Assembly: GCF_000143415.4 (NCBI RefSeq)
Contig: NW_003314291.1
Span: 1,282,517-1,346,516 of the forward strand
Source: Selaginella moellendorffii
Lineage: Eukaryota > Plantae > Lycopodiophyta
Reading direction: 5' to 3'
Length of the DNA stretch: 64,000 nt
A model generated the notes under the pieces. The model was not told where the DNA came from. It was given only the letters and a program-made list of their open reading frames with translations, and made no database searches. Below are positions 1 to 59,763 of the stretch, piece after piece; the stretch's first letter is position 1, and every line of letters starts with the position of its first letter. The translations under genes were made by a program, and so were the position numbers.

Positions 1-10
1 GTTTCAAAAG

Positions 11-2274
11 TTGCGTGAACACAAACTGTATGCTAAGGAAAGTAAATGCGCTTTTGGTCAATTGCGTGTAAACTTTCTCGGACATATAGTTGGTGGTGGC
101 GTGATTGAAGTCGATCCAAAGAAAGTGGAAGCGGTGAAGTCTTGGGAAATCCCGACCACTGTATCAGATGTTCGTTCCTTTCTCGGTTTGGCGGGATACT
201 ATCGCAAGTTTGTCCGCAATTTTGCAAGGATTGCTCTTCCGTTAACTGAGTTGATGAAGAGTAGTATTCCGTTTCATTGGACACCAGCTTGTCAGCGTGC
301 TTTTGTACGGTTGAAGGAGATCTTGACTACGGTTCCTGTTCTCAGGATCCCAGATCTTGATAAACCCTTCGAAGTGCATTGTGATGCGTCTAGCTATGCT
401 ATTGGTGCCATGTTGCAGCAAGATTGTGACAAAGCGGTTGGTGTTACGCTAAGGCGACATGGTTGTCTCGTTGCGTTTTATTCCAAGAAATTGGATGAAA
501 CCCAACGAAGATGGCCAACGCATGAGAAAGAGATGTTTGCTATAGTGTCGGCCCTGGAACACTGGAGACACTACTTGGGTGGACACACCAAGGTTTATAC
601 AGATAGTAACACACTAAGCTACTTTGCTACGCAGCCTAAGCTTACGCCGAAGCAGGCTCGTTGGCAAGAGAAGCTTGCTAGATATGATATTGAAATCATA
701 TATAAACCTGGTAAAGACAATATTGTTCCGGATGTGTTGAGTCGTCAAGCTCAATTCCGGGCAATATCGGCAATCAGTTCGGACTGGTTGGAAGACGTTC
801 AGGCTTCATATGGAAGTGATCTATTGGCGAAGGCAATCTTATGCCGTGCGGGGTTGTTGAAGCAGAGCCCTGGTAGCGAAGCAGCAAAAGTTGCTAGTCG
901 CACTAGTGCGAAACTTCACTTCTCAGTTCGGGATGGGCTTATATTCTATAAGCAAGAAAGATTGTATCTTCCCTCTAAGGATCTCCAGCAGTTATTTTTG
1001 CGGGAACATCATGATGTTCCAGCAGCGGGACATGGTGGACAGCGAAAGACGCTAGCTTCGTTGAAAAAGGGATTTTTCTGGTCTGGTATGGAAGGTGATG
1101 TAGTGGACTATGTCCGTTCCTGCCCTATATGCCAGCAATGTAAGCGCAAAGCTGAGAAGCAGGCTGGAAAGTTGCAGTGCATTCCAGCACCGGCATAGCC
1201 ATTTCAAAGTGTGACACTTGATTTCGTCACTTGTTTGCCGAAGTCTAAAGGTTATGATACTTTGATGGTGGTTGTGGATCGGTTGTCGAAGATTGCACAC
1301 TTCATTCCAATTGTGGGAACAGTGAATGCGAAACAAGCAGCAAAGCTCTTTTTCCATGAAGTAGTGCGAGTTCGTGGTCTTCCCGAAGAGATGATCTCGG
1401 ATAGGGATTCGAGATTTACGGGGAAGTTTTGGGGCAGACTGTTCCAGTTGTTTGGTACCAAGTTAAAGTTTAGTACGGCTTATCATCCTCAGACTGATGG
1501 GCAGACCGAACGTGTAAATGCTCAAGTTGAGGATTATCTGCGGTACTATGTCGCGGCGGACCAACGCGACTGGGTTGAGCATTTGGATACAGCAGAAATA
1601 TGTTATAACAACACATTTCACAGCGCTATAGGCTGTTCTCCATGGGAGATGCTGCAAGGGAATGCTCGTGGGGTTCCTCAACAGATTGTTGTACCGAAAC
1701 CAATGTCCGAGGTGTTGGTCCCAGCCGTTGAGACTTATGCGGAGCAGCTACGCCAAGGTTGATCTAGAGCTACTGAGGCGATGGGCAAAGCTCAAGATAG
1801 GTATCGACGTGATAAGGATCAACATCGTCAGGATGTATCCTATCAAGTGGGAGATCAGGTGTGGCTATCTTCCCGAAACTTGAACATTAAGGGTTCTTTG
1901 TCTCGGAAGCTCTTGCCGAGATATGTTGGACCCTATCGGGTGCTAAAACGCATTGGTGATGTATCCTACGGTTGGATCTGCCTGTGGAGATGTCCAATGT
2001 TCATAATGTATTTCATGCCAATCTATTGACTCCTTACACTATGGATGATGCACGTCAAGGGGAGATTCGTCCGCCACCAAATGTTGTGGATGGTGAACCT
2101 GAATATGAAGTTGAAGCTATCTTGGATGCTCGGTCTCGAAGACAAGCTCATACGAAGGAATATCTAGTTAAGTGGAAAGGTTACCCGACTTGTGAATCAA
2201 CTTGGGAACCTCTTAGGAATCTTACACATGCTCGTGAGTTTGTCATGGAGTATGAGAATCGTAATAAAAACTAG
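11..2274 (+). pseudogene. pol fragment (RT/RNase H/integrase/chromodomain) with premature stops and a frameshift
   Basis: ORFs 11-1198, 1211-1762, 1781-2029 and 1972-2274 are collinear pol pieces separated by stops and a 1-nt frameshift near 1970. Confidence 0.93.
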
Positions 2275-2498
2275 CTTTTGTAAATCTTGTAATAAATCTT
2301 GCAAATTAATAAAATACTATATTTCTATACTCAAAGTGTCGTCTCTCTCGTTCATTAGTACTTGGGTCAGTTTTGGCAGGTTGACTTCGGCACTTCGGTG
2401 CATGGGTCCAATCCATAACCATGGGGATAACTATTATAGACTGATCACAAGTCCCCGCCTCTCTCTCGATGACTCATTTTCGAAAAGGGGCGTAGTCG

Positions 2499-3805
2499 TG
2501 TAAACAACTTAATCTGCCAGTTTATAGTAGTTATCTAAATTTTCCCGACGGGGTTGATTTCTTGCTCAGGGGATGTTGGGCCTCTGGCCCTTTCCCTATG
2601 TCCCTGCGGGCAGGGATGTATCATTCCTTTGTAAGCCGAGTGGTCCTCGGAGCAGCAAGGGTGGCTAACTTTGCTAGTCATTTCCTTGTCGGTGATGGCC
2701 GGAGGGTGTCTGAGTCTTAACGTCTTTGGATATAGAGGAGAGGTAGTTCCATAACTCATTTAAGTCGGTGTGTTTCCCACATAGTGTGCTTTCCATTAAC
2801 TTTCGGAGTTGTTTCCTTGACGGTTTGCTAGACTCGGGTATGCATCGACGAGGACGTCGATCTTCCCTAAGGGGGGGAGAGTGTCGCGAATGTGACTTCG
2901 GGTATCGAAAGATACTTGTCGACCGGTCCTTACGGACACTCTTTCCTTACTGCCATGACGGCAGGAGATCGGTACAGTTGGATCCCTTTAGTAGCCCCTC
3001 TTGTGCTAATGGAGTTAATTGGGCATTTCGAGTGTACTTAGACCGGACGAGCATAAGGATGGAATTCCTATGTGCTATTAGCTAAGCATACTTAGCCCGG
3101 TAAGGAGTTCCCGTCTCGTTTTGTCTTACACTTGCTAGTGACAAGAACCCTCGCGTATTGAGACTAGTCCCTCAATATCGCTGGATGATAGCTTACCGTG
3201 TCTGCCAAACACCCTCGCTATCACGCCCTTTTGTGTTGGTCTTATTTCGGTCCCAAATGCTATTTATGGAAAGTGTCTAGATTAGCTCATTTGGCATATC
3301 TACGGAATGTAGAGATCAGCCTGAACACAATGGTGTTCGTCCCGTGTCCAAATTCGCAATCTAAGGACATTCCATATTTAGTAAGTTTCGAGTTTGTCCC
3401 AGAGACTAACTCCTGGTACTAAGGGAGGCTTGGGGTGAAAGCCCAAAGCATGTGTTCCTCAAGGGGGGGGGGGGGGCTATGGGGGGTTCCAAATGTATAG
3501 TAGGGATAGTGGTTGGAATGCATGTCCGACCACCTGAGACATTAGTTTGGCTCCCATTGGGCTGTGTCGCTCCTTGTTCTGCGTCCGGCTTGGGTCTAAG
3601 CCCAAGCTCCACTCTGCTCTAGTCGGTGGAGTACCCTCCTCCTTGCGTTAAGCCACCGGTATGCCAAAATTGTGCCAGACTCTGTCTGACACCATTTTGC
3701 GTGCAGGTGCTGGATACGGGGAGCTGGTGCTCATGGGATTGCACCGGACCCTCGTTTCGTAGCGCAACGAGCTTGGAGTTCGGCTCCAAATTCAGGTGCG
3801 CTACA
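2499..3805 (+). repeat. Family A LTR (~1.3 kb)
   Basis: Starts TGTAAACAAC right after the PPT and ends GCGCTACA; the same termini occur on the minus strand at 7109 and 8857. Confidence 0.9.
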
Positions 3806-13100: not shown

Positions 13101-13473
13101 TTAACATAATGCATGAGGTCCCCTCACTGCTTTAACCACTGCAGCTCCGCGCGAAGTCTTAGACCAAGATCATCTGGCAAGTATTCCTTACGGATACGAG
13201 ACCACATCTTGGTCCAACTTCTCTTTTTCATCACACCTAGCACCACCAAATTTTGGCATGATTGGTGAGAAAGGATTACACGCATGCAACTTTTGTATGA
13301 TCATCTACATCTGCCACTATGATATAGTTTTCCATATCGTAGACCCAGTCTTCCAAAACTGGATAGTCCTACATGCCTCTGAAATTGGGTGGTTTCGGAG
13401 GCTTGAACTTTAAAACTTGTGCAACTAGGGGCGATTGCAAAACTTCATCGTCCTCAAAACTTGAAGAGGAGTC
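7109..13473 (-). mobile_element. Family A copy 3, decayed: 3' LTR 7109-8857 with an internal duplication, and a gag-pol pseudogene truncated at 13473 by the family C element
   Basis: TGTAGCGCACC terminus at 7109; fragments of zinc knuckle (CFHCGESGYRSLKC), protease (IDTGAT), RT (YIND), RNase H, integrase and chromodomain. Confidence 0.92.
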
Positions 13474-14620
13474 TGTAAGGAACCAACTCGCCGAGGTGTC
13501 GTAGGCTAAAGGAACCCCGAAAGCATGACCAAAATGACAAAGAGTTCATCGGATGGGACCAAGTCGAAGATCGAGTCCAAGACCGACTCTAGGACCGAGT
13601 TCGAGATAGAGTCCGGAATCGAGTCCGAGACCGACTCGGGGACCGAGTTCGAGTCCGAGTTCGAGACCGAGTTCGAGACGGAGTCCGAGATCCGAAATCG
13701 GGTCCGAGACCGAGTCCGAGGTCGAGTCCGAGGTCGGGTCCGAGATCGGGTCCGAGATCGAGTCCGTGATCGAGTCCGAACCCGAATCCGAAGTCGGATC
13801 CGAAATCGGGTCCGAGATCGAGCCAAAGACTAAGTCCAAATACTAATACGGGTCAAGGGGTGAAAGCCCAAAGCGTGCGTCTCCCAGGGGGGGGGGCTGC
13901 AGGGGGTTCCAAAAGTATAGTAGGGATAGTGAGGTCCAGGAACCAGTTTTGAAGGGACTCTCCAGTTGGGCTTCCAAACCGACTTGAGGTTGGGACTGGG
14001 ACTAAGGGGCCTTGGGTGGGAGTGAGCATGGACTTGGCTGGTGCCGGAGGGGCCATCCAAGGAAGTGCTCAAGAGCAGCTCCCACTCCCGAAAGGGAAAC
14101 CGATTGCGGTGCTCCCGGCTCATGTGGAGTGGTGCCCCACTTGAGTACCATGCGGCTCATTGGTCCTCGCCCTTCCTAGGGGCTTGGGCCTTCCTTCGGG
14201 ACGGAAGTGGGGGGCGAGAGGTACCCATACCGGGCCGTTAGGCCACGGTGTTTCGCCCCGGCGTCCCGAAGCAAGTGTTGCACTCAAGACTTGGGATTTA
14301 GAGGGTCCCATGATCAAGTCTTGTGGTACCAAGGGATGTTAGGAACCTAGAAGCTTGGTGTGCTTGGCTGCTTGTGCTTGCGGGGAGTGTAGCCGAACCT
14401 TAAGTCCAGTCTAACCCGGGGAGGGGGATTGGGAGTGATTTGGGAATCCGTGGAAGGATGGCTAACACTCCGTTGCTCGTGCAGTGAGTAGCTGAAACCA
14501 AGTAGGAGTTGGTACCATAGGCGAGAACCTTGGCAAGGGAACTTAGCAAAAGCCAAGGCAGTGTTGGACGGATAGACGAGGTAAGCTGGCAAATTGGAAA
14601 GGAAAAATTTGTGGCTTACA
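13474..14620 (+). repeat. Family C 5' LTR
   Basis: TGTAAGG...CTTACA, near-identical to 19907-21054. Confidence 0.96.
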
Positions 14621-14623
14621 ATT

Positions 14624-14636
14624 TGGTATCGGAGCC
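14624..14636 (+). promoter_or_regulatory. Primer binding site (initiator tRNA-Met type)
   Basis: TGGTATCGGAGCC 3 nt after the LTR end. Confidence 0.9.
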
Positions 14637-14679
14637 TTTATCTCAGTTCTAGCGAAGGATAGAGGCGGATTGCTGGGAG

Positions 14680-17600
14680 ATGGCAAGGGCAGGGCGTAAG
14701 CGAACCCAGGCGGAGACGGAACCTCCGCCGGAGCTGGAGCCTCCGGTTGAACAAGAGGCTATGGATGAGGAATCCTTGCATGAGGAGGACTCCAGTGAGG
14801 AAACTTCCAAACAGGAGTCCGGTGGCGAGGTTCGGTCGTCCAAGGCTCGATTGGACGTGCTAGAAGGACAGTTGGCACAGACCAATGCCCTGCTGGAGAC
14901 TCTCGTACGCAAGTTAAAGCGTGACGAGAAGCGGAAGAAAAAGCGAAAGACTGCGGATGCTGGCAGCGCAGAAGGTGCGGACCCTTCGGCAGGGACTGAG
15001 GCAAAACCTGACAAGGTCGAACAGACCGAAGTGGAATCAGTCCCTCAGGCAGTTCCCAAGTACAAACCAAAGCCCCCACCGGTGTTCAAGGGAGTGAACG
15101 ACTATAAGGTTGTGGAGGATTGGTTTTACGATATGGAGGACTACTTCCGAGCGTTGCGGTTACCGAGCTCGGAGAAGGTCCCATGTGCAAAACCATACTT
15201 GGCAGATAATGCCAAGTCTTGGTGGAGAACAACGGAGGCCAACGAAGGACCGGTGGCCACCTGGGACATGATGAAGGCGAGGATCCGCGCGACATACGTT
15301 CCTCCGAATGCCACTCTGCATCTGAGAGATGAGTTGAGTAGGCTGAAGCAGACTGGAACCATCCAGGAATATGTGAATGGGTTCATGGCAAAGAGGATAC
15401 TTGTCACGGACATGGGGGATATGGATGCGTTCCATGCCTTTATATCAGGTTTGCAAACCTGGGCTCGCGGTGAGGTGATGCGCTGGAACCCGACCAACTA
15501 CAAGGAAGCGTTGGATGCGGCCATCAAGGTGCATTTCAACGATAACCTGCGAAAGGGGAACACGACGGGGTCGGGATCCACGTTTCACAAAGGGGCCAAA
15601 CCGAGGGGAACATATAGCAAGGGGAAATTCAAGAAGAGTTTCTCTAAGAATGAGTCCTCGGGGTTCCGGAAAGGCAAATCCGGTGGCCAGCGAGCGAGTA
15701 CGTGGGGAAGTCAAGCGAAAAGAGACAAACCCACGGATAAGAAGGTCAAGTCGTATAGCAGCGTGGGCAACAACGTATGCTACAACTGCGGCGAAGCGGG
15801 ACACTTCTCAAGGGAATGTCCCTACCCGAAGAAGGCCAGAGCCAATATGGCCATCAAGTCGGGTGAAGTCCAAACTGAGGTATGTGATCCAGTCCCTAAC
15901 TCAAAGTTACTCATTACACGAGCAACTTTGGTAGAGAGTCGTTCGCGACATCTACTAGCCCTCCGAGGGAAGCTCGGAGGTAGCTTTGTTAAGATCCTTA
16001 TTGACACGGGTGCTTCGGATAATTTTGTGGCTGCAGACATAGTCCGGCAAGCCGGACTAACGGTGCAGCGGCTAGGCGAACCAAGGACTATAGAGTTTGT
16101 TCAAGGTAGCCAAAGCACCGATGAGGTACTTCGACAAGCGAGAGTCGAAGTGGGGACATGGAAAGTGGACATGGATTTCACCGTCTTGGACATGGCGGGA
16201 TTTGACGTGATCTTCGGAATGGATTGGTTTAATCGGTTCGTGGTGGCCCTGCATGGACAAGGTAGGAACCTTGTGGTATTGGCGAATGCCCAAGGAAGAA
16301 GATCTAGGGTGGAGGCCCAGGATCTAAAGGTAGGGCAAAGCAAGGCCAAAGAGTCATGCTTAAACCTGGTGTCCACGAGAGGACAACTCACTAAAGGAAC
16401 TAAGGCAGCCTTTTTGTGCTTACTCTCGGTGAAGAGTGACAAAAAGACAAGAACGGAAGAAGTACCTTTAGTGATCCAGCAGGTGCTGGACCAATTCCAG
16501 GATACCATGCCAGAGGAGCTACCGGCGGGGTTGCCCCCCGCACGACCGATAGAACATAAGATTGAGCTGGTCGAGGGTGCTGAGGCGGTGGTTCGTCCAC
16601 CCTATCGATTGAACGAAAAAGAACTCAAGGAGCTCAAGAGCCAACTAGAGGAGTTGGTGGACAAAGGGTATGTTAGGTTGAGCAAGTCACCGTATGGGGC
16701 GCCGGTGCTATTTGTGAAAAAGAAAGATGGATCTATACGCATGTGCATAGACTACCGGTTGCTCAACAAGTATACCAAGAAGAACAAGTACCCTTTGCCA
16801 AGGATCGAGGACCTGTTCGATAGGTTGGGAAAGGCAAAATACTTCTCGAGGATTGACCTAAGGTCAGGATACTACCAAATCAGGGTAGCTGAGGAAGATG
16901 TCGAGAAGACAACCTGTCGAACGAGGTATGGGAGCTTTGAGTTTTTGGTGATGCCCTTTGGGCTGTGCAATGCGCCGGCAACATTTTCGGCGTTGATGAA
17001 CCACATCTTTGTACCCTATCTGGATCGCTTCGTGGTCGTCTATATTGACGACATCTTGATCTATAGCGAGACGCTAGAGGAGCATGCCGAACACTTGGCG
17101 AAGGTGTTTGAGAAACTAAGGGAACACAAACTGTATGCTAAAGAGAGCAAATGTAACTTTGCTCAACAAGAGGTAAAGTTTCTCGGGCATGTGGTGGGCC
17201 AGGACGGGCTCAAGGTGGACCCGGAGAAGGTCCAAGCGATCCAGGAATGGGAACGACCATCGAATGTACATGAGTTAAGGGCGTTCCTGGGGCTATGCAA
17301 CTACTATCGAAAGTTTATCAGACACTATTCGAGAGTAGCCCTGCCCTTAACGGACCAAACAGGAAAAGGGAAGATGGTATGGACAGCGGAATGCGAGGCG
17401 GCATTCGTCCACCTCAAAGGGAAGTTGAGGAAGGCTCCGGTGTTGGCATTACCAGACTTTGGTAAGGACTTTGAGGTAGACACGGATGCTTCGGACTTTG
17501 CGTTGGGCGCAGTTTTGAAGCAAGACAACCATCCAGTAGCGTTCTTCTCGAAGAAGCTGGACAAGGCTCAACGGAAGTGGCCTGCCCACGAGAAAGAATT

Positions 17601-19501
17601 GTTTGCGGTGGTCAAGGCGCTCAAGGAGTGGCGACACTACCTTGGGAGACACTTCAAGGTTTACACGGACAATGTGGCAACGAAACACTTCTTGTCACAG
17701 CCCGACCTAAGGGGAAAACAAGGTCGGTGGGCCAATGCTTTGGCCGAGTTTGATTGCGAGATCCTGTACAAGCCTGGGAAGAGCAACATCGTGGCAGATG
17801 CGCTAAGTCGAAAAGCGAGCTTGAAGTTGGCGATATCTAGCGCGACAGCAACCTTTTGGGACGATGTGCGGACCGCATACGAGAGTGATGGTCTAGCACA
17901 AGAAGTGTTGCTGAGGAATCTGGAGGCGCGGGAAGCTCACCAGAGAGGTGAGCTGCCAACGGAAGAGAAAACGGGCTATGCGGAACGCAACGGACTCATA
18001 TATTACAAGCAAACGAGGGTGTATGTTCCAGAAGGGGAACTAAGGAAAGTAGCCTTGGAAGAGTGTCATGACGGACCTCTTGCGGGACACGGCGGAGTGC
18101 CCAAGACGATGGGCTTACTCAAAAGGAAGTATCACTGGCCGGATATGGCTAAGGACGTCCAAGACTATGTAAAGACATGTCCAACATGTCAGCAGGTCAA
18201 AGCCGTGACGAAGGCTAGTGGGGGCTTGTTGCAAAGCATCCCCATTCCAGATCGTCCGTGGAAATGTCTCACGATGGACTTCATCACGGGACTACCCCCA
18301 AGCGAGGGGTTCGATGCGATATTCGTGGTGGTGGACCGATTTTCAAAGATGGCACATTTCATACCCACCACAACGGATGTGGATGCGGAAGGTGTGGCGA
18401 AGCTGTTCTTCGAACAAGTGGTTCGAGTGTGGGGAAGGCCGGAAGAGATTATCTCAGATCGAGATAAGATCTTCACCAGTAGGTTCTGGAGGACACTCCT
18501 AGAACAGTATCGCACCAAGTTGAAATTCAGCACGGCCTATCACCCACAGACAGGTAATGGGTATTGAGTCAAGATTGATGGCACTAACACTTCTTGACAG
18601 ACGGACAAACGGAAAGGGTGAATAGGCAGCTGGAGGATTATTTGCGATGCTATGTCTCGGGAGACCAGACCGACTGGGTAAGTCATTTGGGACTTGCGGA
18701 AATGTGTTATAACAACTCACCACATTCGAGCATCGGGGTGAGTCCATGGGAAGTCATCAATGGGCGAGCTATTGAAGGTCCTGTGGAACTCGGCGTGGCC
18801 GAGTATCATGGAGAGTTACCCGCAGTGGAGGCATTCACGGCGGAAAGACTCAACATTTGGAATCTAGTGAGGGATTCCTTGGAACGAGCTCAACAAAGGC
18901 AAACCAAGTACGCGAACCTAAAGCGCCGGGATGTAGAGTTCCAAGCTGGGGAGAAGGTGTGGCTGAACACCAAGAACCTTAGGCTACCAAGTGTGATCAG
19001 CCGAAAGTTGACCTCAAGGTAAAAATGCATGTATTCCTGTAAATGAATTGATCTTGAGTTCCTTAAGCAGGTTCGCGGGGCCTTACGAGATTGAGGCACG
19101 AATCNNNNNNNNNNNNNNNNNNNNNNNNNNNNNNNNNNNNNNNNNNNNNNNNNNNNNNNNNNNNNNNNNNNNNNNNNNNNNNNNNNNNNNNNNNNNNNNN
19201 NNNNCCAGTGTTCCATGTGAACTTACTCAAGCCGTACTTTGAGGATCCGCTTCGCAAGGACCAAGTAAGACCTTTACCTGAGGTTATCCAAGGGGAAGAG
19301 GAATACGAAGTCGAGGCCATCCTCAATGCGCGCAAGAGCAAGCGACAAGGACGCGAGGTGAGAGAGTTCCATGTGAAGTGGAAGGGATTTCCACACTGCG
19401 AAGCAACATGGGAACCGGAGGAGAACCTAGCGAACGCGCGAGATCTAGTGGAGGAATTTCTGCAAGGCAGAACTCTATGTACTTATGCAAAGTTCAATTA
19501 A
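14680..19501 (+). CDS. Spliced Gag-Pol polyprotein, join(14680..18553,18601..19018,19071..19501): Gag, CCHC, PR, RT, RNase H, IN, chromodomain; ~1557 aa using copy 2 to fill the gap
   Basis: 1295-aa ORF with [28 protein letters not shown] and HHCC; removing two GT-AG segments restores HPQTDGQTER and RKLTSRFAGPY; chromodomain YEVEAIL...VKWKGF...TWEP. Confidence 0.9.
15880..15934 (+). other. Candidate alternatively spliced intron (55 nt) at the gag/protease junction
   Basis: GAG|GTATGT...TTGGTAG|; removal gives a TAG stop 8 codons later; identical in copy 2 (53103-53157, -). Confidence 0.6.
18554..18600 (+). other. Spliceosomal intron 1 in integrase (47 nt)
   Basis: CAG|GTAATG...CACTAAC...GACAG|; removal restores the frame and the conserved motif. 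Confidence 0.9.
19019..19070 (+). other. Spliceosomal intron 2 in integrase (52 nt)
   Basis: AAG|GTAAAA...AAGCAG|G; AT-rich; removal restores R-F-A-G-P-Y. Confidence 0.88.
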
Positions 19502-19906
19502 AAATATATCAATTTGCAAAGTTGAGCAAGTGGCATATGTTGGGACCCGAAGGCGCGCCGAAGGTGAGCTAATTAGCATGGGTTAGCTAGGTCGACCAGG
19601 CGTAGGGAGCTACGCCCGACTCCCTGCGGGGATGTCGAAACCGTAGACGTATTCTACGGAGGTTGGGTTCGAGTCCCAACCCCCTAGTAAAGCAAGGCTG
19701 GGTTCAAGTCCCGACCCTATACTAGGACGTGGTGAGGGGTGGAGTATAGGGACACCTATATTCCGTTGTCATGAGCTCTTGGCCGGGGAGGCTAACTTAG
19801 GCACACCGCTAAGTGGGGGGATGCCCCTGGAGACATGGTCAACAAGTCGTAGGATAAAATGAGACGTTCGATGTGGGCATCGAACTTCTTCTATGGGTGG
19901 TGGAGT

Positions 19907-21054
19907 TGTAAAGAACCAACTCGCCGAGGTGTCGTAGGCTAAAGGAACCCCGAAAGCATGACCAAAATGACAAAGAGTTCATCGGATGGGACCAAGTCGA
20001 AGATCGAGTCCAAGACCGACTCTAGGACCGAGTTCGAGATAGAGTCCGGAATCGAGTCCGAGACCGACTCGGGGACCGAGTTCGAGTCCGAGTTCGAGAC
20101 CGAGTTCGAGACGGAGTCCGAGATCCGAAATCGGGTCCGAGACCGAGTCCGAGGTCGAGTCCGAGGTCGGGTCCGAGATCGGGTCCGAGATCGAGTCCGT
20201 GATCGAGTCCGAACCCGAATCCGAAGTCGGATCCGAAATCGGGTCCGAGATCGAGCCAGAGACTAAGTCCAAATACTAATACGGGTCAAGGGGTGAAAGC
20301 CCAAAGCGTGCGTCTCCCAGGGGGGGGGGGCTGCAGGGGGTTCCAAAAGTATAGTAGGGATAGTGAGGTCCAGGAACCAGTTTTGAAGGGACTCTCCAGT
20401 TGGGCTTCCAAACCGACTTGAGGTTGGGACTGGGACTAAGGGGCCTTGGGTGGGAGTGAGCATGGACTTGGCTGGTGCCGGAGGGGCCATCCAAGGAAGT
20501 GCTCAAGAGCAGCTCCCACTCCCGAAAGGGAAACCGATTGCGGTGCTCCCGGCTCATGTGGAGTGGTGCCCCACTTGAGTACCATGCGGCTCATTGGTCC
20601 TCGCCCTTCCTAGGGGCTTGGGCCTTCCTTCGGGACGGAAGTGGGGGGCGAGAGGTACCCATACCGGGCCGTTAGGCCACGGTGTTTCGCCCCGGCGTCC
20701 CGAAGCAAGTGTTGCACTCAAGACTTGGGATTTAGAGGGTCCCATGATCAAGTCTTGTGGTACCAAGGGATGTTAGGAACCTGGAAGCTTGGTGTGCTTG
20801 GCTGCTTGTGCTTGCGGGGAGTGTAGCCGAACCTTAAGTCCAGTCTAACCCGGGGAGGGGGATTGGGAGTGATTTGGGAATCCGTGGAAGGATGGCTAAC
20901 ACTCCGTTGCTCGTGCAGTAAGTAGCTGAAACCAAGTAGGAGTTGGTACCATAGGCGAGAACCTTGGCAAGGGAACTTAGCAAAAGCCAAGGCAGTGTTG
21001 GACGGATAGACGAGGTAAGCTGGCAAATTGGAAAGGAAAAATTTATGGCTTACA
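19907..21054 (+). repeat. Family C 3' LTR
   Basis: Follows PPT ATGGGTGGTGGAGT; TG...CA termini. Confidence 0.96.
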
Positions 21055-22158
21055 AATTGGCACAGCGAACAGCTTTGTTAATGGCATCCAACAGGTCCTT
21101 GGGATCCTCCATGGTGAGCAACAAATCCTTGACACCGTTGTTGAGGCCGAAAATGAAATTGGTCAATTAGGGCCCACTCATCCCACTGAGTGTCCAAGGC
21201 AAGGTGTTGGAACTCTGCAGTGTAGATCAAGGCAGGACAAGATCCTTGAGAGAGACGTCTCATCTTTGTGGTAGCAGCCCGAACCCGATCCATCTCGCCA
21301 AAACATGCTTCGAGCTTCTCTTTGAACAATTGAAGATCCATCAGCTCTGGAACCATGACCCCTTTCATGCTCTTCTCTAGAAGAGGAGAAAACCATGACA
21401 AAGCTGCACCTTTGAGCAATGTTATAATCGCGCCAATTTGAGACTCGGGAGTGGGGTACCGCCGATGTTGAAGTGCGAAGATCAGCTCCATCTGGTTTAG
21501 GAATCTGTGAAGCTCCGAACGCTTGCTTGAAAATTTCGCCGGGAAACTCACCTTCAATTTAGGAACTTTGCTAGATCCTTGAGCCGAAAGTGAAGAAAGC
21601 TCCTGCTGCATGCGAAGAAGGGTCGCCTTCAGCTCGGTATTCTCAAATTGGATTTTTGCAAGGACTTTGACAAAGAAATCAAGATGGCTTGGAGGATCCA
21701 TCGGCAAGAAGAAAGAAAAAGGGGGAAAAAAGGCAAAGGTAGTCAAACAATCAAAACGAGCTAAGCAAAAAACAAAAAAACACAATCTGAATCAAACTGT
21801 CAAGACCCCCAACAAGATAAAGACTGGAAAATGCAAAAGACAAAGAGAAAAGCTAGTGGAAACAAAGAAGAGGCCTTAGACTGGCATTAATTCAGATTGT
21901 GGAGAAATGGAACAAGGCTAACCTATATATACTATAGGTTGATGAAGTTCCACCACTCTTGGATCGAAGAGGGCCTAAATATAGCTAAGGTCGAGGAGGC
22001 ACCACATCATCATTAGGAATGTAGCTCGAGACTTAGGAATCGTATAGGAAATCAGAGAGTCAGGAATAAGGAAGTGTCGCGAAAGTCAGAAATGTGGTCT
22101 GCAGGTCAGGAATCCGGCGAGAGTCAGGAATGTGGCAAGAATTGGGGGATTCCTGACA
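21055..22158 (-). mobile_element. Truncated Gypsy element of a third family: 261-bp 5' LTR (21898-22158) plus gag
   Basis: TGTCAGG...CTCCACA LTR on the minus strand; Gag motifs FPAKFS...FLNQ...LLKGAALSWF...LSQG...YTAEF. Confidence 0.8.
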
Positions 22159-22545
22159 CCCTCACTTGGGGGGAGTCCTGTGATGAAGTCCATCGTAAGA
22201 CATTTCCATAGGCAATCTAGAATTGGGATGCTTTGTAACAAGCCCCCACTAGCCTTAGTCACGGCTTTGACCTATTGACATCTTAGACATGTCTTTATAT
22301 AATTTTGGACGTCCTTAGCCATATTTGGCCAGTAATACTTCCTCTTGAGTAAACCCATTGTCTTGGGCACTCCACCGTATCCCGCAAAAGGTCCGTCATA
22401 ACATTCTTCTAAGGCTACCTTCCTTAGTTCCCCTTCTGGAACATACACTCTCGTTTATTTATAATAGATGAGTCCATTGCATTCCGCATAATTTATTTTC
22501 TCTTCCGTTGGCAGCTCACTTCTTTAGTGAGCTTCTCGCGCCTCT
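22159..22545 (-). pseudogene. Decayed family C pol/integrase fragment
   Basis: Similar to 50728-51110. Confidence 0.85.
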
Positions 22546-34549: not shown

Positions 34550-35270
34550 AAATTGAATCCATTGGGGTCCAACCCCCACACTCTCCCTACTATACTTTTG
34601 GAGCCCCCTACAGCCCGCCCCCCCCTCCCCCCCCCCCCGGGGGGACAATCACTTTATGCTTTCATCCAACAGTCTGTAATAGTATTAGGACTCAAATTCG
34701 GACTTGGACTCGGACTCGAACTCGGTCTTAGTCTCAGACTCAGTCTCGGTCTTGGTCTCGATTTCAGACTCAAACTCAATCTCAGTCTCGGTCTCAAGTC
34801 CATCTTGGACTCTATCTGGGACTCCATCTCAAGTCCATCTTGGACTCCATCTCGGACTCCATCTGGGGTCCATCTTGAACTCCATCTTGGACTCCATCTC
34901 GGACTTCATCTCAGATCCATCTTGGAGTCCATCTCGAGTCCATCTTAAACTCCATCTTGGATCCATCTCAAACTCCATCTCAAATCCATCTCGGACTCCA
35001 TCTTGGACTCCATCTCAAGTCCATCTTGGACTCCATCTTGGGTCCTTCCACATGTCATGTGTTGGTCCTTTTGTGTCCCTTTTTTAGAGACTCATTTATT
35101 GCTTGCTTCGTGCTCGTTCCTCAAGCACTTTATTAAGAGTTCCACTCCCACTTTCAACTTTTCAAATTGGAGTTTTTAGTCTATATGTGTTACCCTCATT
35201 TGGCTTCCGCCTCAGCCACTACCACGTGGCACCCTTTCGGCTCCTCTTTGGGGCCTAGGGATTTTATGTC
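34550..35270 (-). repeat. Old family C-related LTR relic with GGACTCCATCTC tandem repeats
   Basis: CCCTACTATACTTTTGGA, poly-C module and short tandem array as in family C LTRs. Confidence 0.6.
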
Positions 35271-48031: not shown

Positions 48032-51000
48032 TGTAAGCCACAAATTTTTCCTTTCCAATTTGCCAGCTTACCTCGTCTATCCGTCCAACACTGCCTTGGC
48101 TTTTGCTAAGTTCCCTTGCCAAGGTTCTCGCCTATGGTACCAGCTCCTACTTGGTTTCAGCTACTCACTGCACGAGCAACGGAGTGTTAGCCATCCTTCC
48201 ACGGATTCCCAAATCACTCCCAATCCCCCCTCCCCGGGTTAGACTGGACTTAAGGTTCGGCTACACTCCCCGCAAGCACAAGCAGCCAAGCACACCAAGC
48301 TTCCAGGTTCCTAACATCCCTTGGTACCACAAGACTTGATCATGGGACCCTCTAAATCCCAAGTCTTGAGTGCAACACTTGCTTCGGGACGCCAGGGCGA
48401 AACACCGTGGCCTAACGGCCCGGTATGGGTACCTCTCGCCCCCCACTTCCATCCCGAAGGAAGGCCCAAGCCCCTAGGAAGGGCGAGGACCAATGAGCCG
48501 CATGGTACTCAAGTGGGGCACCACTCCACATGAGCCGGGAGCACCGCAATCGGTTTCCCTTTCGGGAGTGGGAGCTGCTCTTGAGCACTTCCTTGGATGG
48601 CCCCTCCGGCACCAGCCAAGTCCATGCTCACTCCCACCCAAGGCCCCTTAGTCCCAGTCCCAACCTCAAGTCGGTTTGGAAGCCCAACTGGAGAGTCCCT
48701 TCAAAACTGGTTCCTGGACCTCACTATCCCTACTATACTTTTGGAACCCCCTGCAGCCCCCCCCCCCTGGGGGACGCACGCTTTGGGCTTTCACCCCTTG
48801 ACCCGTATTAGTATTTGGACTTAGTCTCTGGCTCGATCTCGGATCCGATTTCGGATCCGACTTCGGATTCGGTCTCGGACTCGATCGCGGACTCGATCTC
48901 GGACCTGATCTCGGGCCCGACCTCGGACTCGACTTCGGACTCGGTCTCGGACCCGATTTCGGATCTCGGACTCCGTCTCGAACTCGGTCTCGAACTCGGA
49001 CTCGAACTCAGTCCCCGAGTCGGTCTTGGACTTGATTCCGGACTCTATCTCGAACTCGGTCCTAGAGTCGGTCTTGGACTCGATCTTTGACTTGGTCCCA
49101 TCCGATGAACTCTTTGTCATTTTGGTCATGCTTTCGGGGTTCCCTTAGCCTACGACACCTCGGCGAGTTGGTTCCTTACAACTCCACCACCCATAGAAGA
49201 AGTTCGATGCCCACATCGAACGTCTCTTTTTTATCCTACGACTTGTTGACCATGTCTCCGGGGGCATCCCCCCACTTAGCGGTGTGCCTAAGTTAGCCTC
49301 CCCGGCCAAGAGCTCATGACAACGGAATATAGGTGTCCCTATATTCCTCCCCTCACCACGCCCTAGTATGGGGTCGGGACTTGAACCCAGCCTTGCTTTA
49401 CTAGGGGGTTGGGACTCGAACCCAACCTCCGTAGAATACGTCTACGGTTTCGACATCCCCGCAGGGAGTCGGGCGTAGCTCCCTACGCCTGGTCGACCTA
49501 GCTAACCCATGCTAATTAGCTCACCTTTGGCGCGCCTTCGGGTCCCAACATATGCCACTTGCTCAACTTTGCAAATTGATATTTTTAATTGAACTTTGCA
49601 TAAGTACATAGAGTTCTGCCTTGCAGAAATTCCTCCACTAGATCTCGCGCGTTCGCTAGGTTCTCCTCCGGTTCCCATGTTGCTTCGCAGTGTGGAAATC
49701 CTTTCCACTTCACATGGAACTCTCTCACCTCGCGTCCTTGTCGCTTGCTCTTGCGCGCATTGAGGATGGCCTCGACTTCGTATTCCTCTTCCCCTTGGAT
49801 AACCTCAGGTAAAGGTCTTACTTGGTCTTTGCGAAGCGGATCCTCAAAGTACGGCTTGAGTAAGTTCACATGGAACACTGGGTGCATCTTCCCCATCTCT
49901 CGAGGAAGTCGGAGTTGGTAAGCCACTTTACCGATTCGTGCCTCAATCTCGTAAGGCCCCGCGAACCTGCTTAAGGAACTCAAGATCAATTCATTTACAG
50001 GAATACATGCATTTTTACCTTTGGGTCAACTTTCGGCTGATCCCACTTGGTAGCCTAAGGTTCTTGGTGTTCAGCCACACCTTCTCCCCAGCTTGGAACT
50101 CTACGTCCCGGCGCTTTAGGTTCGCGTACTTGGTTTGCCTTTGTTGAGCCCGTTCCAAGGAATCCCTCACTAGATTCCAAATGTTGAGTCTTTCCGCCGT
50201 GAATGCCTCCACTGCGGGTAACTCTCCATGATACTCGGCCACGCCGAGTTCCACAGGACCTTCAATAGCTCGCCCATTGATGACTTCCCATGGACTCACC
50301 CCGATACTCGAATGTGGTGAGTTGTTATAACACATTTCCGCAAGTCCCAAATGACTTACCTAATCGGTCTGGTCTCCCGAGACATAGCATCGCAAATAAT
50401 CCTCCAGCTGCCTATTCACCCTTTCCGTTTGTCCGTCTGTCAAGAAGTGTTAGGACCACCAAACTTGACTTAATACCCCATACCTGTCTGTGGGTGATAG
50501 GCTGTGCTGAATTTCAACTTGGTGCGATACTGTTCCAGGAGGGTCCTCCAGAACCTACTAGTGAAGATCTTATCTCGATCTGAGATAATCTCCTCTGGCC
50601 TTCCCCGCACTCGAACCACTTGTTCGAAGAACAGTTTCGCCACACCTTCCGCATCCACCTCCGTTGTGGTGGGTATGAAATGTGCCATCTTCGAAAATCA
50701 GTCCACCACCACGAATATCGCATCGAACCCCTCGCTTGGGGGTAGTCCCGTGATGAAGTCCATCGTGAGACATTTCCACGGACGATCTGGAATTGGGATG
50801 CTTTGCAACAAGCCCCCACTAGCCTTAGTCACGGCTTTGACCTGCTGACATGTTGGACATGTCTTTACATAGTCTTGGACGTCCTTAGCCATATCTGGCC
50901 AATGGTACTTCCTCTTGAGTAAGCCCATCGTCTTGGGCACTCCGCCGTGTCCCGCAAGAGGTCCGTCATGACACTCTTCTAAGGCTACCTTCCTTAGTCC

Positions 51001-54000
51001 ACCTTCTGGAACATACACCCTCGTTTGCTTGTAATAAATGAGTCCATTGCGTTCCGCATAGCCCGTTTTCTCTTCCGTTGGCGGCTCACCTCTCTGGTGA
51101 GCTTCCCGTGCCTCCAGATTCCTCAACAACACTTCTTGTGCTAGACCATCGTTCTCATATGCTGTCCGCACATCGTCCCAGAAGGTTGCTGTTGCGCTGG
51201 AGATCGCCAACCTCAAGCTCGCTTTTCGACTTAGCGCATCTGCCACGATGTTGCTCTTCCCAGGCTTGTACAGAATCTCGCAATCAAACTCGGCCAAGGC
51301 ATTGGCCCACCGACCTTGTTTCCCTCTCAGGTCGGGTTGTGACAAGAAGTGTTTCGTTGCCACATTGTCCGTGTAAACCTTGAAGTGTCTCCCAAGGTAG
51401 TGTCGCCACTCCTTGAGCGCCTTGACCACCGCAAACAATTCCTTCTCGTGGGCAGGCCACTTCCGTTGAGCCTTGTCCAGCTTCTTCGAGAAGAACGCTA
51501 CTGGATGGTTGTCTTGCTTCAAAACTGCGCCTAACGCAAAGTCCGAAGCATCCGTGTCTACCTCAAAGTCCTTACCAAAGTCCGGTAATGCCAACACCGG
51601 AGCCTTCCTCAACTTCCCTTTGAGGTGGACGAATGCCGCCTCGCATTCCGCTGTCCATACCATCTTCCCTTTTCCCGTTTGATCCGTTAAGGGCAGGGCT
51701 ACTCTCGAATAGTGTCTGATAAACTTTCGATAGTAGTTGCATAGCCCCAAGAACGCCCTCAACTCATGTACATTCGATGGTCGCTCCCATTCCTGGATCG
51801 CTTGGACCTTCTCCGGGTCCACCTTGAGCCCGTCCTGGCCCACCACATGCCCGAGAAACTTTACCTCTTGCTGAGCAAAGTCACATTTGCTCTCTTTAGC
51901 ATACAGTTTATGTTCCCTTAGTTTCTCAAACACCTTCGCCAAGTGTTCGGCATGCTCTTCTAGCGTCGCGCTATAGATCAGGATGTCGTCAATATAGACG
52001 ACCACAAAGTGATCCAGATAGGGTACAAAGATGTGGTTCATCAACGCCGAAAACGTTGCCGGCGCATTGCACAGCCCAAAGGGCATCACCAAAAACTCAA
52101 AGCTCCCATACCTCGTTCGACAGGTTGTCTTCTCGACATCTTCCTCGGCTACCCTGATCTGGTAGTATCCTGACCTTAGGTCAATCCTCGAGAAGTATTT
52201 TGCCTTTCCCAACCTATCGAACAGGTCCTCAATCCTTGGCAACGGGTACTTGTTCTTCTTGGTATACTTGTTGAGCAACCGGTAATCTATGCACATGCGC
52301 ATAGATCCATCTTTCTTTTTCACAAATAATACCGGCGCCCCATACGGCAACTTGCTCAACCTAACATACCCTTTGCCCACCAACTCCTCTAGTTGGCACT
52401 TGAGCTCCTTGAGTTCTTTTTCGTTCAAACGATAGGGGGGACGAACCACCGCCTCAGCGCCCTCGACAAGCTCAATCTTATGTTCTATCGGTCGTGCGGG
52501 GGGCAACCCCGCCGGTAGCTCCTCCGGCATGGTATCCTGGAATTGGTCCAACACTCGCTGGATCACTAAAGGCACTTCTTCCGTTCTTGTCTTTTTGTCA
52601 CTCTTCACCGAGAGTAAGCACAAAAAGGCTGCCTTAGTTCCTTTAGTGAGTTGTCCTCTCGTGGACACCAGGTTCAAGCATGACTCTTTGGCCTTGCTTT
52701 GCCCTACCTTTAGATCCTGGGCCTCCACCCTAGATCTTCTTCCTTGGGCATTCGCCAATACCACAAGGTTCCTACCTTGTCCATGCAGGGCTACCACGAA
52801 CCGATTAAACCAATCCATTCCGAAGATCACGTCAAATCCCGCCATATCCAAGATGGTGAAATCCATGTCCACTTTCCATGTCCCCACTTCGACTCTCGCT
52901 TGTCGAAGTACCTCATCGGTGCTTTGGCTACCCTGAACAAACTCTATAGTCCTTGGTTCGCCTAGCCGCTGCACCGTTAGTCCGGCTTGCCGGACTATGT
53001 CTGCAGCCACAAAATTATCCGAAGCACCCGTGTCAATAAGGATCTTAACAAAGCTACCTCCGAGCTTCCCTCGGAGGGCTAGTAGATGTCGCGAACGACT
53101 CTCTACCAAAGTTGCTCGTGTAATGAGTAACTTTGAGTTAGGGACTGGATCACATACCTCAGTTTGGACTTCACCCGACTTGATGGCCATATTGGCTCTG
53201 GCCTTCTTCGGGTAGGGACATTCCCTCGAGAAGTGTCCCGCTTCGCCACAGTTGTAGCATACGTTGTTTCCCACACTGCTATACGACTTGACCTTCTTAT
53301 CCGTGGGTTTGTCCTTTTTCGCTTGACTCCCCCACGTACTCGCTCGCTGGCCACCGGATTTGCCTTTCCGGAACCCCGAGGACTCATTCTTAGAGAAACT
53401 CCTTTTGAATTTCCCCTTGCTATACGTTCCCCTTGGTTTGGCCCCTTTGCTAAATGTGGATCCCGACCCCGTCGTGTTCCCCTTTCGCAGGTTATCGTTG
53501 AAATGCACCTTGATGGCCGCATCCAACGCTTCCTTGTAGTTGGTCGGGTTCCACCTCATCACCTCGCCGCGAGCCCAGGTTTGCAAACCTGATATGAAGG
53601 CATGGAACGCATCCATATCCCCCATGTCCGTGACAAGTATCCTCTTTGCCATGAACCCATTCACATATTCCTGGATGGTTCCTGTCTGTTTCAGCCTACT
53701 CAGTTCATCCCTCAGATGCAGAGTGGCATTCGGAGGAACATATGTTGCGCGGATCCTCGCCTTCATCATGTCCCAAGTGACCACCGGTCCTTCGTTGGCC
53801 TCCGTTGTTCTCCACCAAGACTTGGCATTATCTGCCAAGTATGGTTTTGCACATGGGACTTTCTCCGAGCTTGGTAACCGCAACGCTCGGAAGTAGTCCT
53901 CCATATCGTAAAACCAATCCTCCACCACCTTATAGTCATTCACTCCCTTGAAGACCGGTGGGGGCTTTGGTTTGTACTTGGGAACTGCCTGAGGGACTGA

Positions 54001-55561
54001 TTCCACTTCGGTCTGTTCGACCTTGTCTGGTTTTGCCTCAGTCCCGGCCGAAAGATCCGCACCTTCTGCGCTGCCAGCATCCGCAGTCTTTTTCTTTTTC
54101 TTCCGCCTCTCGTCACGCTTTAGCTTGCGTACGAGAGTTTCCAGCAGGGCATTGGTCTGTGCCAACTGTCCTTCTAGCACGTCCAATCGAGCCTTGGACG
54201 ACCGAACCTCGCCACCGGACTCCTGTTTGGAGGTTTCCTCACTGGAGTCCTCCTCATGCAAGGATTCCTCATCCATAGCCTCTTGTTCGACTAGAGGCTC
54301 CAGCTCTGGCGGAGGTTTCGTCTCCGCCTGGGTTCGCTTACGCCCTGCCCTTGCCATCTCCCAGCAATCCGCCTCTATCCTTCGCTAGAACTGAGGAAAA
54401 GGCTCCGATACCAAATTGTAAGCCACAAATTTTTCCTTTCCAATTTGCCAGCTTACCTCGTCTATCCGTCCAACACTGCCTTGGCTTTTGCTAAGTTCCC
54501 TTGCCAAGGTTCTCGCCTATGGTACTAGCTCCTAGGTTTCAGCTACTCACTGCACGAGCAACGGAGTGTTAGCCATCCTTCCACGGATTCCCAAATCACT
54601 CCCAATCCCCCTCCCCGGGTTAGACTGGACTTAAGGTTCGGCTACACTCCCCGCAAGCACAAGCAGCCAAGCACACCAAGCTTCCAGGTTCCTAACATCC
54701 CTTGGTACCACAAGACTTGATCATGGGACCCTCTAAATCCCAAGTCTTGAGTGCAACACTTGCTTCGGGACGCCAGGGCGAAACACCGTGGCCTAACGGC
54801 CCGGTATGGGTACCTCTCGCCCCCCACTTCCATCCCGAAGGAAGGCCCAAGCCCCTAGGAAGGGCGAGGACCAATGAGCCACATGGTACTCAAGTGGGGC
54901 ACCACTCCACATGAGCCGGGAGCACCGCAATCGGTTTCCCTTTCGGGAGTGGGAGCTGCTCTTGAGCACTTCCTTGGATGGCCCCTCCGGCACCAGCCAA
55001 GTCCATGCTCACTCCCACCCAAGGCCCCTTAGTCCCAGTCCCAACCTCAAGTCGGTTTGGAAGCCCAACTGGAGAGTCCCTTCAAAACTGGTTCCTGGAC
55101 CTCACTATCCCTACTATACTTTTGGAACCCCCTGCAGCCCCCCCCCCCCGGGGGACGCATGCTTTGGGCTTTCACCCCTTGACCCGTATTAGTATTTGGA
55201 CTTAGTCTCTGGCTCGATCTCGGATCCGATTTCGGATCCGACTTCGGATTCGGTCTCGGACTCAATCGCGGACTCGATCTCGGACCCGATCTCGGGCCCG
55301 ACCTCGGACTCGACTTCGGACTCGGTCTCGGACCCGATTTCGGATCTCGGACTCCGTCTCGAACTCGGGCTCGAACTCGGACTCGAACTCAGTCCCCGAG
55401 TCGGTCTTGGACTTGATACCGGACTCTATCTCGAACTCGGTCCTAGAGTCGGTCTTGGACTCGATCTTTGACTTGGTCCCATCCGATGAACTCTTTGTCA
55501 TTTTGGTCATGCTTTCGGGGTTCCCTTAGCCTACGACACCTCGGCGAGTTGGTTCCTTACA
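48032..55561 (-). mobile_element. Full-length family C copy 2 with TSD CTAAC
   Basis: LTRs 54417-55561 and 48032-49180; PBS 54401-54413; PPT from 49181; CTAAC at 48027-48031 and 55562-55566. Confidence 0.97.
49585..54357 (-). pseudogene. Gag-Pol, complement join(49585..49966,50019..50436,50484..54357), with two premature stops (~50698 and ~50360)
   Basis: Exons sum to 4674 nt (1558 codons); introns 50437-50483 and 49967-50018; CGA>TGA and TGG>TAG relative to copy 1. Confidence 0.9.
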
Positions 55562-55567
55562 CTAACC

Positions 55568-56075
55568 TGTAAGGAACCAACTCCCCAAGGTGTTGTAGGC
55601 TAAAGGATCCCCGAAAGCACGACTGAAATGATAAAGAGTTCATCGGATGGGACTGAGTCTGAGATTGAGTCCAAGACCGACTCTGAGACCGAGTTTATAA
55701 ATAGAGTCCGAGACTGATTCCGAGACCAAGTTTGAGACCGAGTTTGAGACCAAGCTCGAGATAGAGTCTGAGATCCGAGATCGGGTCCGAGACTGAGTCC
55801 GAGGTCAAGTCCAAGGTTGAGTCTGAGATTGGGTCCGAGGTCGAGTCTGAGATCGAGTCCGGGACCGAGTCCAAAGTCGGGTCCGAGATCGAGTCCGAGA
55901 TCGAGACTAAGACTGAGTTCAAGTACTAATACAGGTCGAGGGGTGAAAGCCCAAAGCGTGCGTCTCCCGGGGGGCGGGGGGGGGTTCCAAAAGTATAGTG
56001 GAGTCCAAACTGACTTGAGGTTGAGACTAGTGCTAAGGGGCTGAGGGGCCTTGGGTGGGAGTGAGGAGTGTGGAC
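55568..56075 (+). repeat. Older truncated family C LTR, head-to-head with copy 2
   Basis: TGTAAGGAACCAACTC start; CpG-depleted hexamer array. Confidence 0.9.
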
Positions 56076-57700: not shown

Positions 57701-59171
57701 GATTGATTATAGACCCTTCAAAAAATATAAAATTTCTATAGCTATTTTGATTACATGTTTCATCTATGCAATCCAAATGCCTACAACAGTAAACTATAGA
57801 CACTATTCTTTCAAAATGCTAAAGGTGTGTGGTCTTAATCTTACGCCAATTTTAAACATTTTACTTGGTCTCCATCCCTTTTCATTTGGAACTAGTGTTG
57901 TTGATAAGAGGTTTTAGATCAAAGAAGATATTGTTGTTGTAGCAGGATGGAAGCTCACTCATGGGTATATATAGAAATAAGTGTATCTTGACTGAGAAGT
58001 GGGAAAAGTGGAAAACATTACTAATAACTTTGAATATTACTGAAGATGGAGCTCATGAATTTGGGGCTAACACTAGCATAGTTTTTCCACTTGAATTGGA
58101 AGAGGAGGATAGGATGATGACTAACTCTTTCTTCACATTCACTTTAGCTTAAACACTTTGATTGGAGATCCATAAATTTGAATCTCCATAAAGTTCGGTT
58201 TATGTTTTATCTTTCTACCCTTGCCAACACTAGAAAGATAAAACACCAAGCAACAACCATACTAGTATTGTTGCAGATCACAACCTCTAACAAAATAGAG
58301 CCAAGATGAAGATAAAAATGGCAACATAAAAAACTTTTAGAAACATGATTTTAAGAGAACAAAAGTGGTGGGTGATCTCAAAAATGTAGAAGAACCTTTT
58401 CATCCTTCTTTATAGGTTTTGGAGTTCTCTATCTCCCTTATGCTACTTATAAAAATCTATAGTGAAACATAAATTGAGATTTAAGGAGATTAATAAGAAG
58501 AATAATAACAATGTACAAATGAATTTAAATACTATAGCATATCTAATATGTGTAAGTGTGATAGTATTATCATATGTTCTGTTGTCTATTGCATGCACAC
58601 AAATCCAAGAAAAGGTTTTCAGCACGTGAAGTTTGATTGTTAGTGATGATAGTAATAACATTCTGCTTTAGCATGGAGATGCAAGATATCTGATCACATG
58701 TAAAATATCAATAGTTTGTCAAATCTTTAGTGTTAGGTGATGTTCGTAATGATAATTCTTCAATGACATAGTTTTGATTCTCAATATGAGTTGAGTTTTA
58801 GCCATATATACAAATACTGCTCAATGACATTTAGAGCATATGCCTATAAATTAGGTTCATACACAATACAAAACAAATTTATGGATGTGGATTCATCCAT
58901 TCATAGATTAAAATAGTACAATATATTTAATATAATAATGCAACATACCAGATTTATACTCTTTAAAGTTCTGTCATGAATCCAAAATATGTTTGAAATC
59001 TTGTTTAGAATGCATCCTTTCTATATAAATGGGAAAACTAATATTAATTGTCAAATAACTTACATATTGAAAGGTGCTATATATACCATCATTTAAAATT
59101 TTTTAAAAAATTTTACATACAATATAAATGTATCTTATGTTATTGATAATATAATATAGGGTATAAGCCAA

Positions 59172-59763
59172 GTAGTTTCTGGCCTCAAGGGCTCGAGGTT
59201 ATTCAAATAACCTCCGGCCCCCCGACCCAAAAACTGCCCGAGGTCGAGGTCGGGCTCGCCACCTTGGGTAGTTTCTGGCCTCGAGGGCTCAAGGTTATTC
59301 AAATAACCTCTGGCCCCCCGACCTGGAAACTGCCCGAGGTCGAGGTCCAGCTCGCCACCTTGGGTAGTTTATGACCTTAAGGGCCCGAGGTTATTCAAAT
59401 AACCTCCACCCCCCCGACCCGAAAACTGCCTGAGATCGAGGTCTGGTTCGCCACCTTGGGCAGTTTGTGGCCTCGAGGGCCCGAGGTTATTCAAATAACC
59501 TCGGCCCCCCCGACCCAGAAACTGCCCGAGGTCGAGGTCCGGCTCGCCACCTCGGGCAGTTTCTGGCCTCGAGGGCCCAAGGTTATTCAAATAACCTCGG
59601 GCCCCCGGACCCAGAAACTGCCCGAGGTCAAGGTCCGGCTCGCCACCTCGGGCAGTTTCTGGCCTTGAGGGCCCCAGGTTATTCAAATAACCTTGGGCCC
59701 CCAAGTCCCCAAACTGCCCGAGGTCCAGCTCGGCCTCGCCACCTTGGGCAGTTTCTGGCCTCG
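59172..59763. repeat. GC-rich tandem array, 96-bp unit, ~6 copies, two palindromes per unit
   Basis: TTTCTGGCC-like motif recurs at 59176, 59272, 59368, 59464, 59560, 59656 and 59752. Confidence 0.92.

Follow-up and report, generated by a model that had tools for sequence, protein, structure and literature searches.

The classic demonstration of retrotransposition is that an intron disappears in a single round of copying, and intron loss by way of reverse transcription runs in one direction only. LTR elements of plants are described as generally intronless, with exceptions such as Ogre and EVADE (PMC12786077). In a 64,000-nucleotide stretch of Selaginella moellendorffii DNA (hereafter the window), an LTR retrotransposon has an integrase gene interrupted by two short inserts with the appearance of spliceosomal introns. 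How can a family that multiplies through reverse transcription keep introns in one of its own enzymes?

The element is present in the window as copy 1 and copy 2 (Table 1). Copy 1 has the features of a Ty3/gypsy chromovirus, namely LTRs bounded by TG..CA, a primer-binding site (PBS), a purine-rich tract (PPT) and the domain order PR-RT-RH-IN. The primer tRNA is presumably tRNA-Met. The two LTRs of copy 1 differ at 5 of 1147 positions. A motif scan of the LTR found a single TATAG, at 13916, and neither TATAWA nor AATAAA. The LTRs also contain 6/12-nt microrepeat arrays (13550-13830), and related arrays with a period of 11-12 nt are found at ~34.7-35.1 kb (34678-35076). A single ORF starting at 14680 encodes Gag through the front of integrase and ends within intron 1; the SH3 domain and the chromodomain are 3' of this stop. 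The chromodomain (PF00385; E-value: 7e-17) is encoded by exon 3 and becomes contiguous with integrase only once both introns are spliced. The assembly gap in exon 3 (100 N) corresponds to 51 nt in copy 2. No target-site duplication is present at the flanks of copy 1 (13469-13473 versus 21055-21059). Copy 1 may be either a recombinant or mis-joined at the N gap. Pieces of gag on the minus strand border it on either side.

Table 1. Positions in the window of the two element copies, their parts and a copy of the sister family.
Feature	Positions	Strand	Remarks
Copy 1	13474..21054	+	Ty3/gypsy chromovirus (SM1-Galahad match), ~7.5 kb
5' LTR	13474..14620	+	1147 nt, TG..CA, poly-G tract
Primer-binding site	14624..14636	+	13 nt, tRNA-Met type
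Exon 1	14680..18553	+	Gag, zinc knuckle, protease, RT, RNase H, integrase zinc finger, both catalytic Asp codons (18277, 18457)
Intron 1	18554..18600	+	47 nt, phase 1, GT..AG, CTAAC at 18584-18588, in-frame stop at 18565-18567; missing from contig X1 and one X17 read
Exon 2	18601..19018	+	Remainder of integrase core, catalytic Glu codon 18612-18614
Intron 2	19019..19070	+	52 nt, phase 2, GT..AG, in-frame stop right at the beginning; missing from contig X1
Exon 3	19071..19501	+	Tf2-type SH3 domain and chromodomain; assembly gap 19105-19204
Purine-rich tract (PPT)	19895..19905	+	Directly upstream of 3' LTR
3' LTR	19907..21054	+	1148 nt; 5 mismatches and 1 gap relative to 5' LTR
Copy 2	48032..55561	-	97% identical to copy 1; 5-bp target-site duplication
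Intron 1 of copy 2	50437..50483	-	7/47 letters changed relative to copy 1; GT, AG and CTAAC unaffected
Intron 2 of copy 2	49967..50018	-	Identical to copy 1 (0/52 differences)
Sister family A	1..3414	+	Decayed copy without either intron; LTR ~2499-3414, of SM2-Galahad-like length

The element very likely belongs to the same family as SM1-Galahad of S. moellendorffii, a match made by description rather than by sequence. Both are ~7.5 kb long with a poly-G tract and a 13-nt primer-binding site, which is of the tRNA-Met type in SM1-Galahad as well. The LTR of SM1-Galahad measures 1146 nt, compared to 1145-1149 nt for the window element. Both have a first ORF of 3885 bp (1295 aa) that lacks a chromodomain, followed by short ORFs of 316 and 309 bp in SM1-Galahad and 318 and 309 bp here (PMC3350952). 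SM1-Galahad has been published as a family that numbers hundreds of copies, "no intact copy" among them, with a polyprotein lacking a chromodomain, and the consensus built from many of its copies stops at the same point, at 1295 aa (PMC3350952). The published account treats this structure as a broken ORF with extra ORFs, whereas here the breaks prove to be spliced introns. The text of PMC3350952 speaks neither of introns nor of splicing, and introns go unmentioned in its supplement as well. The introns of SM1-Galahad appear to have been missed in publication.

The sequence details that had suggested introns hold. Both inserts are bounded by GT...AG at the positions proposed in the sequence-only reading (18554-18600 and 19019-19070), the CTAAC motif that it reported in intron 1 is located 12 nt upstream of the intron end, and each insert introduces the claimed stop, since translation through intron 1 ends at 18565-18567 and translation from exon 2 into intron 2 ends immediately. 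Six registers collinear with the flanks exist for intron 1 and five for intron 2, and GT..AG is found only in the one given in Table 1. The joint chance of GT..AG for two arbitrary inserts is ~4.5e-4. GC content is 40% in intron 1 and 33% in intron 2, compared to 51-52% in the exons, so that the inserts combine GT..AG ends, a branch-like motif and a GC content below that of the exons, all features of U2-type spliceosomal introns. Segments of this size may be spliceable in this host: the 47-56 nt GT..AG candidates reported at 62981-63473 are present in the sequence and are putative introns.

As had also been claimed, both introns are found at the same places in copy 2 (50437-50483 and 49967-50018). 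The in-frame stop of intron 1 is TGA in one copy and TAA in the other (18565-18567, 50470-50472), a stop either way, although this is a single case. The identity of intron 2 across copies was considered as a sign of constraint on the intron and was not accepted, as the adjoining exons are also little changed (dS 0.03-0.04). Copy 2 is itself defective, with nonsense codons in integrase at ~50700 and ~50362. Both are private to copy 2: in the DNA-like runs described below, almost the entire contig depth has the other letter. The LTR pairs of young intron-bearing copies are 99.3-99.6% identical. A related LTR (83% identity) begins 5 bases from copy 2 (window 55562-55999), and an additional fragment (88%) is located at 22159-22544.

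The spliced frame was compared to homologous integrases by translating the three coding pieces separately, with an X at each break, and aligning 192 of 200 fetched proteins. Break 1 is spanned by 184 homologues, 183 of which have no gap, and an Asp is found opposite the break in 177. Break 2 is spanned by 165, of which 128 are gap-free and 154 have Arg or Lys at this position. Joining the split codons would yield just these residues; both excisions restore the homologous residues exactly. With break 1 counted as one residue, the spacing from the second catalytic Asp to the Glu is 35, as in the D-D-35-E motif. Exon 1 contains both Asp codons and exon 2 the Glu codon, so by established DDE chemistry unspliced RNA cannot yield an active integrase. 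The prediction of a dead integrase from unspliced RNA therefore stands, as the stub stops before the catalytic Glu. The broader claim that functional Pol must come from spliced mRNA stands for integrase only, because Gag, protease, RT and RNase H all lie in the unspliced ORF. The doubly spliced frame would encode 1557 aa, compared to 1577 aa for the SM2-Galahad polyprotein (PMC3350952). If intron 1 alone is removed, the frame stops at the start of intron 2 (19019-19022), which would give an integrase core without the SH3 domain and chromodomain. None of four exact ORF sequences was present in the protein collection, and among 246 longer candidates no protein was more than 48% identical to exon 2.

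The exons downstream of the first stop show the substitution pattern of coding sequence. Between copies 1 and 2, dN is 0.011 and dS 0.114 in exon 1; exon 2 has four synonymous and four non-synonymous changes, and exon 3 has two and none. Among the 22 distinct changes listed for exons 2-3, scored against copy 2, which is defective, 17 are synonymous, four are non-synonymous and one is at a private stop of copy 2. A synonymous fraction of 17/22 compares to 32% expected (p=1.6e-5). This excess indicates that the exons past the first stop are maintained as protein, which counts against an integrase that is dead or dependent on a helper.

Evidence for splicing was sought in contigs aligned on copy 2 and in raw reads. 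None of the runs listed for this stretch is recorded as RNA. Two runs, X1 and X3, were taken as RNA by guess. Three others (X11, X12 and X14; kind unrecorded, with X12 and X14 representing one sample) were judged to be DNA from their many variant contigs. Three raw RNA-seq runs were picked by species label and read to ~12% each. In X1, the contig that dominates (contig 1; 1083 nt, depth 9.4) is fully spliced, omitting exactly 52 + 47 nt with GT..AG ends, both on one record. As 36 of its 1083 letters are unlike those of copy 2, it derives from a different locus. The raw RNA-seq runs contained 8, 1 and 0 element reads, and junction 1 is crossed by one of the nine (from run X17, with 46 letters on the short side); junction 2 is seen in the X1 contig only. 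In X3, one contig keeps intron 1 and another extends 13 nt into intron 2. The DNA-like runs gave 386, 157 and 77 contigs, and neither intron is skipped in any of these 620, a count to be read with the fact that contigs lose rare variants, although contigs of depth 2-3 were retained. Long contigs at depth ~50 in these runs read through one or both introns. Both spliced and unspliced forms are found in probable RNA, and only the unspliced form is seen in probable DNA. The spliced reads to be expected of true introns were thus found, and the young copies, which had to be mostly intron-bearing for the sequence-only reading to survive, are so in these contigs. Its description of the inserts as introns of spliceosomal type is upheld by their removal in RNA and their retention in DNA copies.

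At position 49994 (copy 2, position 25 of intron 2; ~19043 in copy 1), one X17 read and the sole X18 read seem to end and to continue with unlike letters. Judging from bin depths, these reads could come from polyadenylation within intron 2 or from a genomic copy that is truncated.

The window contains a decayed copy of a sister family (family A), with an LTR of ~916 nt compared to 919 nt in SM2-Galahad (PMC3350952). It had been reported as uninterrupted at both intron sites, and its sequence is indeed continuous there (1463-1530 and 1886-1950). Its identity to the window element in Pol is 40-51%. In a midpoint-rooted FastTree phylogeny of 195 RT-end/RH/IN sequences (473 columns), the element family is sister to family A (support 0.962), and both fall within a 73-member clade (support 0.993) alongside single-ORF angiosperm elements; no labelled Galadriel reference was included in this tree. 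The Galadriel label comes from PMC3350952, and some Selaginella chromoviruses are called unclassified in PMC6317226. Among 83 related DNA loci (41-54% identity), site 1 is read through in 79 and site 2 in 64, three breaks are frameshifts of 1-2 nt and the rest are uncovered; no intron-sized insert was found at any covered site. By parsimony, both introns were likely gained on the element family's own branch. Neither the window nor the 83 loci contained a sequence from which either intron could have come. Direct repeats are present at the intron borders, of 5 nt for intron 1 (18549-18600) and 4 nt for intron 2 (19017-19072), a match that is partly imposed by the splice consensus. Newly gained introns are marked by short repeats at their flanks.

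The reading that best accounts for these observations, with a probability of about 0.7, is that full integrase is made only from doubly spliced mRNA and that the intron-retaining RNA is the form that is reverse transcribed. The host spliceosome would remove the introns from a fraction of transcripts. Most transcripts would stay unspliced and be translated into Gag through RNase H with a dead integrase stub, while the doubly spliced fraction would supply integrase with the catalytic Glu, SH3 domain and chromodomain. The product of the spliced RNA would join the forming particles as a Gag-Pol in the minority. Spliced transcripts would rarely be copied, most likely because packaging favours unspliced RNA. 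Alternatively, the spliced mRNA may have ends unsuited to reverse transcription, as in BARE1. A low integrase-to-Gag ratio from one ORF would be the likely benefit. Tf1, which also has a single ORF, reaches a Gag-to-integrase ratio of 26:1 through degradation, and an excess of Gag is needed (PMC7175516); by analogy, splicing could serve the same end here.

A packaging bias toward intron-retaining RNA is suggested by the absence of intronless DNA contigs. As intron loss cannot be reversed and the family has hundreds of copies without visible intronless members, either packaging or reverse transcription is biased, which is probable, or intronless copies steadily fail. The consensus that ends at the same stop and the lack of an intact copy among hundreds fit a family without intronless copies. 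Two points count against this reading. First, no packaging signal is seen in the folding of the introns: folded alone, neither intron beats its shuffles (z -0.8, -1.5, 0.1), and intron 1 plus flanks (z -2.2) is the single such result in five folding tests. Second, the stop in the unspliced RNA lies 1340 nt upstream of the 3' LTR, and this RNA could be a target of nonsense-mediated decay. In both copies, folding predicts a 6-bp stem that joins the middle of intron 1 to its 3' end; it is not significant.

A more elaborate scheme, to be entertained only tentatively, is that the two gained introns act as a switch. Retention would mark genome RNA and limit integrase, and removal of intron 1 but not of intron 2, perhaps combined with polyadenylation within intron 2, would give a catalytically complete integrase without SH3 domain and chromodomain and with a different choice of target.

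The strongest competing explanation, though an unlikely one, dispenses with RNA sorting. Splicing would simply be inefficient and spliced RNA sometimes copied, with the intronless copies failing through excess integrase or low Gag, or being silenced or purged. The X3 contigs that keep intron 1 or reach into intron 2 suggest that the introns may commonly be kept; retention is the predominant form of alternative splicing in the host and affects short introns (PMC5310277); and contigs could miss rare intronless copies. Without any bias, however, intronless copies should accumulate, and none is seen among the 620 contigs even though those of depth 2-3 were kept. Moreover, no intact copy is reported in PMC3350952, and in X1 the dominant contig has both introns removed. 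It is less probable still that the family is non-autonomous for integrase and borrows the enzyme from its intronless sister family, splicing of the inserts being incidental. The presence of family A in the same window, the two integrase nonsense codons of copy 2 and the publication of the family without intact copies (PMC3350952) would fit such a dependence. However, exons 2-3 are under purifying selection, both excisions restore homologous residues exactly, the copy 2 stops are private, and the sister family is distant in Pol. Finally, the skipped forms could in principle come from an intronless genomic master copy (as DNA carry-over or as its transcript) rather than from splicing, given that the RNA status of X1 is a guess and its contig is from another locus, but this is highly improbable because such a joint is absent from all three DNA-like runs, the young intron-bearing copies must derive from intron-bearing RNA, and exact GT..AG deletions would themselves need prior splicing.

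The preferred reading, doubly spliced mRNA for integrase and intron-retaining RNA for copying, has several parallels, and a split between mRNA and genome RNA is already known from Ogre and foamy viruses. In Ogre (Ty3/gypsy, Tat clade), genomic copies retain an intron that a portion of the transcripts loses by splicing, which allows downstream Pol to be translated (PMC6317226, PMC4408406, PMC12786077, PMC2533021). The window element differs from Ogre in having two introns of ~50 nt within integrase coding sequence, one of them inside the catalytic core, and in that RT and RNase H need no splicing. The Ogre lineage is defined by an intron between PR and RT and by being non-chromoviral, whereas here PR-RT-RH is continuous and a chromodomain is present; the element works like Ogre without being a member of it. 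In foamy viruses, enzymes are made from a spliced mRNA and the full-length RNA is the genome (PMC7828637). Different pools of RNA serving translation and replication are also found in copia, EVADE and BARE1 (PMC5580714, PMC3735527). BARE1 has a facultative intron of 104 nt, only unspliced RNA occurs in its particles and its spliced RNA lacks the R region (PMC3735527). In these three elements, splicing shortens the polyprotein to Gag, and every enzyme is encoded by the unspliced RNA (PMC5580714, PMC3735527), whereas here the enzyme set becomes complete through splicing. Penelope-like elements also retain introns after retrotransposition, but they have no LTRs or Gag particles, encode a GIY-YIG nuclease and use another mechanism (PMC8557442). 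In the literature covered, which did not extend to Repbase reports, subscription journals, the primary Ogre papers or the supplements of PMC6317226, no report was found of introns within the integrase of an LTR retrotransposon, nor of introns in this family.

A successful family thus appears to have gained and retained two ordinary short introns in its integrase, and an intronless sister family is available as the background for this gain. As the mRNA and genome RNA differ by only 99 nt, the element may offer an unusually clean system for studying how a retroelement distinguishes them. Annotation based on ORFs can file autonomous intron-bearing families as dead, and this seems to have happened with SM1-Galahad.

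Two further features were observed toward the end of the window. A tandem array with a 96-bp period is located at 59078-59845, and the region 60655-64000 contains a minus-strand multi-exon gene or transposon, in which the 47-56 nt intron candidates mentioned above are located, with a weak match to DUF7039 (E-value: 1.4e-4).
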